Virus record (IMG/VR): IMGVR_UViG_2703718810_000005 | Coordinates: 1 to 50,143 of that record | Length of the DNA stretch: 50,143 nucleotides | DNA from: a virus | Lineage: Duplodnaviria; Heunggongvirae; Uroviricota; Caudoviricetes | Reading direction: 5' to 3' (one strand) | In this document: positions 3,858 to 8,377 of the stretch, one piece after another | Position numbering within the stretch: position 1 is the first letter of the stretch | Layout of the letters: each line of letters opens with the position of its first letter | Notes under the pieces: generated by a model | What the model saw: only the letters and a program-made list of their open reading frames with translations | Told to the model about the DNA's origin: nothing | The model's database searches: none | Position numbers and translations under genes: made by a program

Positions 3858-4186
3858 CAGTTCACCACCTGCTTAAACTCCGCGCTGAACTCAACGCGCA
3901 ACATCCCGACCCGCGCAGACCACCCGGCACAGGTCACCTTTATCTGCCGGTATGCATAGGGTGGCTTCCACAAAAATGCCTTCCAGCCCCCGTGCTCTGC
4001 CAGGAACGCTTCCAGATGCCGGGCCTCCTCCCGGCTCACGGAAAGCATCACCCGGTATGTTTTCAGGTCAGCATTCAGCCCTGCCGCCATACGCTGTGAG
4101 TACCCGTCACCAAAACGCACTTCACGCACCGACGGCTGCGAGTTCACCTCCATATCCGGCTTCACTTTCCAGCGAAAGGTTTTCAT
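3857..4186 (-). CDS. M: Minor tail protein M
   Basis: 109 aa, MKTFRWKVKPDMEV... like lambda gpM; ATGA overlap with L. Confidence 0.9.
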   Translation of the reverse strand: MKTFRWKVKPDMEVNSQPSVREVRFGDGYSQRMAAGLNADLKTYRVMLSVSREEARHLEAFLAEHGGWKAFLWKPPYAYRQIKVTCAGWSARVGMLRVEFSAEFKQVVN

Positions 4187-6759
4187 CGCCCGCTCCCTGA
4201 TAACATACCGCCATCACGCAACTGCAGCCGGAGCTCATCCTGCGCCCCCTTGCGGGCCATGTCATACACCGCCTTCATCAGCTGCGGCCCCGCCTGTCCG
4301 TTGATACCGTCGTTCTGAATCACCACGTGATTGTTCTGATTAAAATTAATACCTTCCGCCCGCCGCATCTGCGCCGGACTTCCGGCACCACCCACATAAC
4401 CACCTTCCGCATAGCCGCGCATCAGGCGGTAAAGATTCCCCACACCTATCCGGCTGGTTGCCTCCTTCGTGAAGACAAACTCCCCGCGGTGAACTATCCC
4501 CGCAGGCTCATATTTGCCGCCCGTGCCCGTAAATCCGCCGGTCGCAAAATGAAAGTTCGCTGCCGCAGCCTGAATGGCTGTCCCCGTGGAAGCGGATGCG
4601 CCAGCACCACCAATGGCTCCCCCGATGGCGCTGCCGATACGCCCGACAATGCCCACCATGGCCTGTTTAAGCAGGATTTCTGTCATCATGGACAGCACCG
4701 AACGGGTGAATCCCCGCCAGTTCTGTTCACTGCCGGTCAGCATCGCCGCCATATTCTGTGCAATACCGTCAAAGGTCTGCGTGGCCACACTTTTAACCTG
4801 CGAAAAACTGTCCGTCGCACTTTCCGCCCACTCGCCCCAGCCGGACTTCAGCCCGGCCAGCCAGTCACCGCGCAGCATGTCTTCATCCGCCCATGTCTGT
4901 TTCAGTGCCCCGGTGACCCGGGCCAGCGCCTGCGGATTACCGCCATACATGTCACGAAGACGCTGCGCTTCAGACTCCCGCTGCGCCTGACGGTCAGTGA
5001 GACCGCGGGCTTTTGCGCTGATGGCGGCCTGCTTCGCGCTCTGTTGCTCTTCAAACCGTGCTGCCTGCTGTGCAAGTTCATTCAGGCGTTTCTGGTGCTC
5101 CACCTTGTCGCCCAGCTCAGCCAGCTGGCGTTTGTACTCCAGCGTTTCTTTCTCATGAGCCAGCAGGGATTTTTCCTGCCCGGATAACTGCCGTTTCGTT
5201 GCGGCCTCTTTCAGGACCGCATACTGACTTTCCGCTTTCCATAAATCACGGCGCTGCTGGCTGATTTTCTCATTCGCACCGCTGTGCTTCTCCAGCGTCC
5301 GGAGCTCAGTTTCAAGCGCCAGCAGGGCTGCATGCGCCCGGTCTTCCTGACGCTCACCGGCAGACACCTTCACACCTGACGGCTTTTTCAGCGTCGATTC
5401 ATAATCCTTTTTTGCCGACGCCATCAGCGTGTTGTAATCCGCCTGCAGGATTTTTCCGTCTTTCAGGGCCTTATTCAGCTCTTTCTGACGGGCGGTATAT
5501 TTATCCAGCGGCGTCTGCAGGCGCTCATACGCCTTCTGCGCCTCTCCGGTATACTTCAGCTGTGACGCCTTACGCTCAGCCCGGTCCCTTGCCGCCAGTT
5601 CACCGGCTTTTTCCATATCCGACTGCAGCGTTGCCGCCGCCAGCCCCAGACGGGCATTTTCCCGGTCATCCCATGCACCCTGAAGGTTGGCCCGGAACGA
5701 GGCGGTTTTACCGCGGCGCTGGCTCCGGCTCTGGTACCACTGCCATTTTTTATCCGCCTCATCAAATGCCTTCTGCGCACTGGCGAGCATGTCCGCAGAA
5801 GATTCCGGACGACCGATATCCAGAATGGCATCCCACATCGATTTGAACGCCTTCCCTGTTTTATCCGCCCAGGTTTCCAGCGTCCCCATGTTCTCTTTCA
5901 GGCGGCGGGTCTGCTCATCAAAGCCTTTCGTGGCAATATCGTTCGCCGCCTGTAAGGCACCGGCCTCGTCTCCGGAACGCTGCAGCTGAGCAACATACGC
6001 AATCTGCTCTGCCGTCACGTTGCGGAACTGGCGTGCCATCGCAGTCAGCCCCGACGTCGGGTCGGTGGTCAGTTTTCCGAAAGCCTCTGCAACCTTGTCC
6101 ACCTCCACACCGGAGGCAGACGCAAAACGCGCCACACTCTGGTTAATGGCATCAAACTGTTCACCACCACGCACACCGGCACTGACCAGGGCTGCCAGTG
6201 ACTCTCTCGCCTGGTTAAACGTCAGCCCTGCTGCCTGCCCGGCTCTTGAGAGAGTCAGCATACGATCGGCAGTCAGTCCGGACTGATTACCGGAAAGAAC
6301 CAGGGTTTTATTAAACGCTGAAAGCGTGGAATCTCCCTGGTACCAGGCGTACACCAGCGCACCTGTCGCCACCGCCAGCGAGGTGACCCCGACCATCGGC
6401 AGGGTGATCGCACCGGCGAGCCCCCTGAACATGGGGATCATCCCGCCGAAGGAGTCCTTCACCTGACCGCCCTGTTGCAGCAGGATCAGCCAGGGATTCT
6501 GACCACCGGCAAGCTGCGTGGCGATATCCGTAAACTGTGCAGGCAGGGTTCGCATGGCCGCTTTATACTGCCCGACGGACATCCCGGCTTTTTGTGCAGC
6601 CAGCGCCTGACGGCTCAGCCCCTGCTCAACAGCACTGGCGGTTTTTCTGGCGTCAGTCTCCAGTCCTGAAAAATGACGCCTTACGCGGGTCATCTGCTCA
6701 TCGAAACGGACCGCATCCAGACTCAGGTCAATAACAAGATCACCAACCGGCTGGGACAT
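4183..6759 (-). CDS. H: Tail length tape measure protein H
   Basis: 858 aa, position and size as lambda gpH, long coiled-coil central region, Gly-rich C-terminus. Confidence 0.9.
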   Translation of the reverse strand: MSQPVGDLVIDLSLDAVRFDEQMTRVRRHFSGLETDARKTASAVEQGLSRQALAAQKAGMSVGQYKAAMRTLPAQFTDIATQLAGGQNPWLILLQQGGQVKDSFGGMIPMFRGLAGAITLPMVGVTSLAVATGALVYAWYQGDSTLSAFNKTLVLSGNQSGLTADRMLTLSRAGQAAGLTFNQARESLAALVSAGVRGGEQFDAINQSVARFASASGVEVDKVAEAFGKLTTDPTSGLTAMARQFRNVTAEQIAYVAQLQRSGDEAGALQAANDIATKGFDEQTRRLKENMGTLETWADKTGKAFKSMWDAILDIGRPESSADMLASAQKAFDEADKKWQWYQSRSQRRGKTASFRANLQGAWDDRENARLGLAAATLQSDMEKAGELAARDRAERKASQLKYTGEAQKAYERLQTPLDKYTARQKELNKALKDGKILQADYNTLMASAKKDYESTLKKPSGVKVSAGERQEDRAHAALLALETELRTLEKHSGANEKISQQRRDLWKAESQYAVLKEAATKRQLSGQEKSLLAHEKETLEYKRQLAELGDKVEHQKRLNELAQQAARFEEQQSAKQAAISAKARGLTDRQAQRESEAQRLRDMYGGNPQALARVTGALKQTWADEDMLRGDWLAGLKSGWGEWAESATDSFSQVKSVATQTFDGIAQNMAAMLTGSEQNWRGFTRSVLSMMTEILLKQAMVGIVGRIGSAIGGAIGGAGASASTGTAIQAAAANFHFATGGFTGTGGKYEPAGIVHRGEFVFTKEATSRIGVGNLYRLMRGYAEGGYVGGAGSPAQMRRAEGINFNQNNHVVIQNDGINGQAGPQLMKAVYDMARKGAQDELRLQLRDGGMLSGSGR

Positions 6760-7204
6760 ATCTCACACCTCCGGAAATCCCCGCAGAAGCCATCATTAAT
6801 GCGACATCATCCTCGCTGACATCCACCACATCCGCAGAAGGTGAAATATCGCCCCCGCCCTCCCCGCCGAACCGGACGCCTCCGGCAAGTCCTGCCGCTT
6901 TCTGCATCAGCATGTCTTCCTCATCCGGCCTCTCCGTCTGCGCTTCCTCACGCCGGGGGACAAGCAGACTGAAATCCGAGGGATGCATATCCGGATCGTA
7001 TAAAAACAGGCTGAGTACGGCGTACGTCAGCCCGGAAAAATGCATATCCAGCTGGGTATCGTGAAAATAATGCGTGCGGTAAAAACGTCGCCAGTCGGCA
7101 TATTCGGTGGATGTCATCCCGGCAAGCATGGCGCGCCAGTCGGGTCTCCCCATCTCACGCGCCAGTCTGAGGGCAAAGTTCAGCTCGCCGTCGAAGACTT
7201 TCCC
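6740..7204 (-). CDS. T: T segment of tail assembly chaperone G-T (reached by -1 frameshift from G)
   Basis: ORF in -1 frame relative to G, beginning at slippery heptamer G GGA AAG (7198-7204) and ending at 6740. Confidence 0.8.
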   Translation of the reverse strand, partial: GKVFDGELNFALRLAREMGRPDWRAMLAGMTSTEYADWRRFYRTHYFHDTQLDMHFSGLTYAVLSLFLYDPDMHPSDFSLLVPRREEAQTERPDEEDMLMQKAAGLAGGVRFGGEGGGDISPSADVVDVSEDDVALMMASAGISGGVRYVPAGW

Positions 7205-7611
7205 GCAGAAAAATCATCATCAGTCAGCGTGTTATTTTTCGCCACTTCAGTAATATCAGTATCCGGACGAACAGCTTCGATCATCCCGGACAGGCACAAC
7301 ACCACGTCTTCCGCCCGGGCAATGGCATCGGCAGGCCAGGTGGTGAGCACTTCCTGCTCTATCTTCATCACGGCCTCATTCATTGACGGTGACTGCGTTT
7401 TCTGTGGATGGTTATGCCACAGGGACATCGCCACCAGAAACGCGCCGGTTCTGACGAGATCTTCCACGCTTACCTGCAGGTTGCCGCTGGATTCTGCCTG
7501 TTCTGCACGCCGTTTCAGAAGGGCAAGATGCTCGATACGCTGCAGCGCAGACAATTCGGAAAGCGTGACAGACACACCGTTATATTCAAATTGTTCTGTT
7601 TTCAGAAACAT
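7180..7611 (-). CDS. G: Tail assembly chaperone G
   Basis: 143 aa, MFLKTEQFEYNGVSVTLSELSALQRIEHLAL... like lambda gpG. Confidence 0.9.
   Translation of the reverse strand: MFLKTEQFEYNGVSVTLSELSALQRIEHLALLKRRAEQAESSGNLQVSVEDLVRTGAFLVAMSLWHNHPQKTQSPSMNEAVMKIEQEVLTTWPADAIARAEDVVLCLSGMIEAVRPDTDITEVAKNNTLTDDDFSAGKSSTAS
7198..7204 (-). promoter_or_regulatory. Programmed -1 ribosomal frameshift slippery site (GGGAAAG)
   Basis: Minus-strand GGGAAAG in G frame as G GGA AAG, 5 codons before G stop; identical heptamer and position to lambda G-T. Confidence 0.8.
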
Positions 7612-7624
7612 GTATTACCTCCGT

Positions 7625-8377
7625 TTACCCTGCAGCGCCCGCTTCAGTAACGGTGACTTCAGCCACTGCGGCGAACTGACCATTTCCGCTCACCACAGGG
7701 ATCTGCACCTTACCTGTCGCCACGCCGTTTACCGTAATTGTCATATCTTTCACACTAATGGTGGCTTTCGACGGATCGGCGGAAACCGCTCTGAACGTCT
7801 TGTCGGTTGCACTTTCCGGCTCAAAAGAAACCGTCAGGGTGGTTGTTTTCCCTTTTGCCACCGTACCGGATGTAGGCGTCACCTTAATCGCACTGACCGG
7901 CGTAATTTTGCTGCGTTCTTCCGCTACAGAAGGTTTACCCACGTTAGTGACTTTCACCGTGCGGGTGATCACTTCTTTCGCCGTCACGGCCTTACCGATA
8001 CTGCTGACCCAGCCACGAAACACATCCACCGTGCCATTCGGAAAACGGATTTTATAGGCCCGGACATCGCCGCTTTCAAACCAGCCTATAAGCCCTTTCT
8101 GACCTTCCTCTCCCGGTTTCCAGGCCAGCGTAAAACTGGTATCACCTGCAGATTTCTGCCCCTGCCCGGTCGCGGTCCAGTCTGCGTCTTCATCATCCAG
8201 GTAGTTATCATCGTAGGATTCTGCCGTCATCTCGCCCGGCGTCAGATCCTTCACCTTAGCCAGTCGCTGCCAGTCAGCGTCTGACAACGGGTTTGCATAA
8301 GCATCACCCTTGCCGTTGTAAACCCACAGAGTGGTACCGGCACCTTTTACTGGCTCCAGGGGATTTGGTGTTGCCAT
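7625..8377 (-). CDS. V: Major tail protein V (with C-terminal Ig-like domain)
   Basis: 250 aa, ...[12 protein letters not shown]...[17 protein letters not shown]... like lambda gpV. Confidence 0.9.

Follow-up and report, generated by a model that had tools for sequence, protein, structure and literature searches.

A predicted programmed -1 frameshift site between tail genes G and T of a Stx1a-converting lambdoid Escherichia coli prophage

Tail genes and slippery heptamer

The analyzed DNA, a stretch of 50,143 nucleotides hereafter called the window, carries two overlapping open reading frames between tail genes V and H, namely G (7180..7611) and the T frame (6740..7204), both on the minus strand. 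All late genes of the region lie on this strand, and the gene order Z-U-V-G-T-H is that of the lambda tail. The zero-frame product of the G ORF is a tail assembly chaperone of 143 aa (15.7 kDa), which matched PF06894 in a profile search (E = 1.9e-51) and the NCBIfam equivalog TIGR01674, phage_lambda_G, with 167.6 bits (cutoff 74.45). Lambda gpG is 69% identical to this protein. G is preceded by a strong Shine-Dalgarno (SD) sequence, GGAGG, with an anti-SD duplex of -10.8 kcal/mol. The T segment, which is the -1 frame as it would be read after the slip (6740..7198, minus strand; 152 aa plus the stop), was delimited by translation and by profiles. The -1 frame matched PF06223 (E = 1e-13), and at full length it scored 202 bits against TIGR01715, phage_lam_T (cutoff 77.35), covering profile positions 1-110 from residue 7 onwards; lambda T is 73% identical to it. 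The predicted G-T fusion, complement(join(6740..7198,7198..7611)), has 290 aa and a mass of 32.2 kDa. Directly upstream of G lies V (7625..8377, minus strand), which encodes the major tail tube protein (PF16461, E = 1.9e-69; Big_2, E = 2.9e-18), in lambda the partner of the T domain. The tape measure gene H (4183..6759, minus strand; PF06791, E = 1.2e-69; PF09718, E = 2.5e-21) overlaps the end of T by 20 nt at its start and also has an SD duplex of -10.8 kcal/mol. By analogy with lambda, the H product would be the binding partner of G and G-T.

Elsewhere in the window, the Shiga toxin 1a A subunit is encoded at 25456..26412 on the minus strand (NCBIfam Stx1a A, 728.9 bits, cutoff 718), and an 89-aa ORF at 25177..25446 on the same strand occupies the place of stxB1a in a near-identical prophage of an E. 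coli ST130 strain. Because of these two features, we regard the window as a Stx1a-converting lambdoid prophage. The prophage integrase lies at 40557..41843, and the ST130 prophage adjoins a DUF72 (yecE) gene. A second element of low GC content was observed beyond the integrase (42300..50143; 38-43% GC vs 46-60% for the prophage). On the plus strand it encodes a large serine recombinase (42353..43876), and on the minus strand a protein containing a tape-measure domain (44814..46889), where related genomes have a baseplate protein in their annotation. At least 80% of this element was present in just 13 of 5426 complete E. coli genomes, and a satellite, a defective phage and a tailocin-like element are candidates for its identity.

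The minus strand reads GGGAAAG at 7198..7204 (CTTTCCC on the plus strand), and the register of this heptamer within the G zero frame is X XXY YYZ. The original prediction had placed a G GGA AAG heptamer here, five codons before the G stop and with the T frame open in -1, and had left the strand unnamed; each of these statements agrees with our reading of the minus strand. The 3' end of the G ORF reads ...TCT GCG GGA AAG TCT TCG ACG GCG AGC TGA in the zero frame, i.e., five sense codons follow the heptamer before TGA, and the -1 frame, counted from the heptamer (7204), stays open for 154 codons to the stop at 6742..6740, beginning with GKVFDGELNF... In the predicted -1 slip, base 7198 would be read twice. 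The upstream limit of the overlap zone (7205..7222, minus strand) was evident from the sequence and its -1 frame translation: TGA TGA TGA (7222..7214) is followed by TTT TTC TGC, so that the -1 frame is open for just 3 codons upstream of the heptamer. Because of these three stops, a productive -1 shift is confined to the stretch from 7213 to the G stop at 7180 (about 11 codons), within which G GGA AAG (7204..7198) is the only canonical slippery heptamer.

As a bare string, GGGAAAG was not enriched in the window, with 5 occurrences vs 7.81 ± 2.71 expected. Since this count was not significant, we used a geometry test, in which XXXYYYZ heptamers (Y = A/T) had to be free of stops over at least 100 codons on either side, upstream in the zero frame and downstream in the -1 frame. 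Only one of the 316 XXXYYYZ heptamers on both strands of the window had this geometry, the one at 7198-7204. The assignment of the slippery heptamer draws on the in-frame reading, the position in lambda, the geometry test and the conservation described below.

This lineage, unlike lambda, has a T_TTT tetramer (7213..7210, minus strand; GAT TTT TCT) within the 0/-1 overlap zone, immediately past the three TGA codons and three codons ahead of the heptamer. In E. coli, ribosomes are weakly prone to shift on U_UU.Y tetramers (PMC4066793), and T_TTT could be a second, minor slip site with the junction ...DDDFFCGK... A slip at this tetramer would give ...DDDFFCGKVFDG... instead of ...DDDFSAGKVFDG..., with the computed diagnostic peptide NNTLTDDDFFCGK.

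Conservation of the site and a putative downstream RNA structure

The comparative set consisted of 115 sources, the window and 114 further loci (lambda, phage records ranging from 96% to 33% identity, and viral and genomic contigs). A site of the same geometry was present in 109 of them, and the other six were short or partial contigs. The site occurred in three forms, GGGAAAG (101 loci), AAAAAAG (2) and GGAAAAG (6), and the A AAG Lys codon was invariant. All 101 GGGAAAG sites lie five codons before the G stop, as do the AAAAAAG sites of VT1-Sakai and Stx1_1649. The same distance was found for GGAAAAG in N15, phi80, mEp043 and Enterobacter phage MStein-2023a, and the heptamer is nearer to the G stop in mEp460 (one codon) and Providencia phage PSTCR8lys (zero codons). 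A scan for strict X XXY YYZ heptamers near the end of G gave none in N15, phi80, mEp460, mEp043 and the Enterobacter and Providencia phages; inspection of these six phages located G GAA AAG at the homologous place. One slippery sequence appears to have been swapped for another at a fixed place, which is what selection for slipperiness predicts and argues for such selection. When the conceptual fusion was used as a tblastn query, every phage record was matched as two pieces in two frames. The N15 record itself marks the homologous heptamer as 'slippery sequence for -1 translational frameshift'.

The relatives among viral contigs (80 loci) had G proteins 98-100% identical to that of the window and offered little divergence; the diversity of the set came from the tblastn search on phage records. 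Stretches 100% identical to the window were found in prophages of E. coli ST130, from yak faeces, and OkiPb01694, from bovine faeces, and related copies in 3647 of 5426 complete E. coli genomes. A group of genome-contig matches at 69% G identity (L006-L018, L020-L022) came mostly from low-coverage contigs of unrelated genera, including Neobacillus, Oceanobacillus, Pseudomonas, Shewanella, Kitasatospora, Leeuwenhoekiella and Paenibacillus, and 12 loci carried the 107-nt site context of lambda (L001). Instead of genuine prophages, these 69% matches look like lambda DNA that has strayed into public assemblies (contamination), and they add no diversity. The G-T region of Escherichia phage Perceval (OV696612.1) was 75% identical at the protein level. 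One of the 34 distinct T sequences, from a viral contig, read ...LSLFFAIRICIPRISVC after about residue 66 of the -1 frame. This pattern indicates a one-base indel inside T, which would reflect a defective prophage or an assembly error.

Folding and pair counts outlined a putative RNA structure of about 70 nt downstream of the site (7120..7190, minus strand). In the predicted outer helix, which starts 7 nt past the heptamer, 7190..7183 is paired with 7127..7120. The predicted inner hairpin is formed by 7164..7149 and 7144..7129; it covers the LAREMGRPDWRAM codons and includes an internal ATG. The 98 nt past the heptamer had a minimum free energy (MFE) of -41.4 kcal/mol, with a z-score of -3.6 against dinucleotide shuffles. 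We also compared the native fold with 1000 synonymous-codon variants encoding the same protein in each of seven phages. The z-score was -2.4 for the window, and the native sequence was moderately more stable than its variants in six of the seven phages (z -1.4 to -3.1), the exception being the Providencia phage. Across 18 distinct sequences, 92.4% of cells were paired vs 23-42% with slid partners, and 5 pairs were changed on both sides, including a G-C to A-U exchange at columns 16/84 in the N15/phi80 group, both figures being inflated by the relatedness of the sequences and by the derivation of the structure from one member. Synonymous variability was not reduced in the structure zone (0.185 vs 0.187 further into T, p = 0.49), the outer helix was absent from the MFE folds of mEp460 and the Providencia phage, and an Rfam scan of 6600-7700 returned no family, with a single meaningless sub-threshold lncRNA match.

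For 51% of the members of their cluster G_GGA_AAG_4 (74 genes), Sharma et al (2014) listed a hairpin at a spacing of 7 nt, with a ddG/nt of 0.020, under their threshold of 0.09, and with RVSS = N, i.e., synonymous variability not reduced (PMC4066793). In reporter assays, GGGAAAG shifted at 0.277% when bare, at 3.8% with moderate stimulators and at 43% with a strong pseudoknot (PMC4066793 supplement). Because bare GGGAAAG shifts at only 0.277%, the rate of about 4% in lambda suggests that the context contributes. A real, modest stimulator common to lambda-like G-T genes could account for this gap between 0.28% and about 4%, and it might also suppress spurious initiation at the buried internal ATG; that the structure at 7190..7120 is such a stimulator we consider doubtful. 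If there is a downstream stimulator, it is probably weak.

The start of T and rival accounts of its expression

In RefSeq, T of the identical ST130 sequence is a separate gene of 137 aa (WP_071532372.1; NZ_CP043478.1 2826540..2826953, equal to window 6740..7153). It starts at the internal ATG that encodes the Met of T (7151..7153, minus strand), and GenBank PV340551 also starts T at this codon. In PV340551.1, NC_021190.1, NC_019716.1, AP000400.1 and MW057859.1, T has differing, non-homologous starts or is named 'hypothetical protein'. The -1 frame of the window contains no ATG, GTG or TTG for 17 codons past the heptamer, up to ATG 7153. The codons between the site and this ATG are conserved as protein, reading VFDGELNFALRLARE in the window, VFDGELSFALKLARE in lambda and ALASELKFAMKLARE in N15, and differences from the window were distributed over -1-frame codon positions 1, 2 and 3 as 23/39/74, with the third position richest.

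If T were independent and started at ATG 7153, as in RefSeq/PGAP and GenBank PV340551, the heptamer would be incidental. The 137-aa ATG ORF, with a predicted product of 15.2 kDa, does exist and is annotated so; it passes the NCBIfam T cutoff alone, with 183.4 bits, and in the public protein collection this exact protein was found on 793 contigs (G on 992). Its match to the T profile, however, begins only at position 12, positions 1-11 lying upstream of the ATG, and the 15 codons before the ATG are conserved in the -1 frame, within the T family profile. The anti-SD duplex at ATG 7153 reaches -2.3 kcal/mol vs -10.8 kcal/mol for G and H. Moreover, the ATG codon is Phe (TTC/TTT) in N15, phi80, mEp043, mEp460, MStein-2023a and PSTCR8lys, the starts chosen by annotators are not homologous, and the ATG would lie inside the predicted hairpin, if the hairpin forms. 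Such an independent T is therefore very unlikely, and ATG 7153 is probably not a start codon. In lambda, Levin and co-workers are said to have observed, in their 1993 work, gpG and gpGT as the only products. Translational coupling is common in phage late operons, and ribosomes that end G at the TGA at 7182..7180 could also restart at the ATG 26 nt downstream to make a separate T. The short distance from the G stop to the ATG would suit termination-reinitiation, as would the overlap of the H start with the T end, but the ATG varies among relatives, the coding sequence before it is conserved, and the persistence of a slippery heptamer at one position in three different sequences would be left unexplained, which makes this route hardly credible. 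A low level of independent or re-initiated T would be compatible with the sequence.

The fusion itself could in principle arise by transcriptional slippage, in which RNA polymerase stutters on a run of A. The six-A run of VT1-Sakai and Stx1_1649 (AAAAAAG) would lend itself to this, but the window and lambda have three consecutive A only. For polymerase slippage to be productive, the homopolymer run must be about 7 or longer. What is invariant across the relatives is the codon-register-specific A AAG and not the run length. Frameshifted products are known to arise by transcriptional slippage as well (PMC5009743), yet the lambda rate responds to thiolation of tRNA-Lys U34, a translational property (PMC3296357), and for the present site we regard this origin as practically negligible. 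On the sequence, T appears to have no functional start of its own, and an independent start is not plausible; the statement of the original prediction that T should not be annotated as an independent ATG-initiated gene is supported by the missing start, the SD comparison, the conservation and the T profile.

In the record panel examined, a joined G-T CDS was annotated nowhere; the slippery site is marked in the N15 record alone, and a note in Lambda imm434 names the GT product. The exact 290-aa fusion was absent from about 15 billion public proteins. The mis-annotation is systematic, because the fusion is absent while separate T and G proteins are widely recorded. The right annotation would consist of a G CDS and a G-T CDS, complement(join(6740..7198,7198..7611)), with the ribosomal_slippage qualifier. 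As annotated at present, T loses 15 N-terminal T-frame residues, including 11 conserved profile positions. The practical value of the finding is this annotation correction, and biologically there is nothing new. As the prophage carries stx1a, the tail-gene annotation is of minor use in judging the intactness of Stx prophages and their particle production.

Predicted frameshift and comparison with known systems

With its anatomy, homology and conservation, and with no plausible independent start for T, 7198-7204 is very probably the programmed -1 frameshift site of a lambda-type tail chaperone pair in a Stx1a-converting lambdoid E. coli prophage. Ribosomes would start at the G start codon at 7611, and most would pass G GGA AAG and stop five codons on, yielding gpG. 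A small fraction would slip back by one base with GGA in the P site and AAG in the A site, where tRNA-Gly would re-pair with GGG and tRNA-Lys (mnm5s2UUU) with AAA, and would then translate the -1 frame through T into the 290-aa G-T fusion. The missed-cleavage peptide across the G-T junction was computed as NNTLTDDDFSAGKVFDGELNFALR. The peptides VFDGELNFALR and EMGRPDWR, encoded before ATG 7153 and across it, would be confined to G-T; SSTAS is the C-terminal peptide of G, and MGRPDWR would be the N-terminal one of a T initiated at ATG 7153. By analogy with lambda, the tape measure protein H would carry a coat of many gpG and few gpGT, the T part would recruit the tube protein V, and neither chaperone would stay in the virion.

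The argument for G and G-T here is built on 69-73% identity to lambda, a phage in which experiments have demonstrated the frameshift (Levin et al, 1993, cited by PMC5009743 and PMC3296357). That the slip occurs in this prophage, at what rate and with what role in assembly would follow from this homology. The original prediction held that the heptamer confirms that the tail chaperone is made as G and G-T; both products are indeed predicted from the sequence, and the word "confirms" is too strong. The lambda G/GT slip site is GGGAAAG, at which about 96% of ribosomes keep the zero frame and about 4% slip (PMC3296357; PMC5009743); the main text of PMC3296357 gives 'GGGTTTG', which we take as a misprint since its Table 1 has GGGAAAG. 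Lambda tail assembly needs gpG and gpGT at about 30:1 (PMC3296357; PMC5009743), with the G part binding the tape measure protein and the T part the tube protein (PMC5009743; PMC3296357; PMC7618472). That both proteins are required for tail assembly and absent from mature virions is evidence from lambda only (PMC5009743). The lambda slip rate depends on the U34 thiolation of tRNA-Lys (PMC5009743; PMC3296357; PMC7618472). G_GGA_AAG is among the most shift-prone heptamers of E. coli (PMC4066793; PMC6924986), and prophage gpG clusters with GGGAAAG and AAAAAAG were listed as true cases of -1 programmed ribosomal frameshifting (PRF) in 2014 (PMC4066793). The finding is correct; it was to be expected, is already part of the literature and adds a further copy of a recoding event found in textbooks.

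The likeness to phage lambda, described in the original prediction as exact, holds for the heptamer and its five-codon offset, which are identical, with both heptamers in one column of the DNA alignment. The flanks are nearly identical as well (TTTCTGC GGGAAAG TnTTCGACGGnGAGCTGA), and the two phages have in common the V-G-T-H order, the Pfam and NCBIfam families and the protein identities given above for G (69%) and T (73%). The differences are in detail: G has 143 aa here vs 140 in lambda, the fusion has 290 aa vs 279, and about 75 nt of G just upstream of the site (the last 25 or so residues) are strongly diverged. Going upstream from the site, the -1 frame closes after 3 codons here and after 13 in lambda. 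Two codons past the site, the lambda GTG that serves as the T "start" in NC_001416 is GTC in the window; hence even the nominal T start of lambda is missing in this genome.

The G/T pair of VT1-Sakai (A_AAA_AAG_25 / ECs1801; Sharma et al, 2014) is homologous: its site is also five codons from the G stop, and the T N-terminus downstream is as in the window. It differs in its heptamer, A AAA AAG instead of G GGA AAG. N15 (gp14/gp15), phi80, mEp043 and mEp460 share the families and the architecture, and 0-5 codons separate their site from the G stop. Their heptamer, G GAA AAG, departs from a strict X XXY YYZ and was described as "less slippery" in vitro (PMC6924986), their fusions are 35-48% identical to that of the window, and they have Phe where T of the window has the Met of the internal ATG.

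E. coli dnaX and the IS911/IS3 elements differ from the window in their high rates of frameshifting and in strong stimulators of proven function, which are an SD-like element upstream, a hairpin or pseudoknot downstream, or both. At the window site, no upstream SD-like element was present in the sequence, in line with the 'N' in table S4 of Sharma et al; compared with dnaX and IS911, the window has a doubtful downstream structure only, and the expected rate is a few percent. In the predicted slip itself these systems are alike, as dnaX and IS911/IS3 also shift by -1 on the A AAG Lys codon, which is read by tRNA-Lys(mnm5s2UUU) (PMC4066793; PMC6924986).
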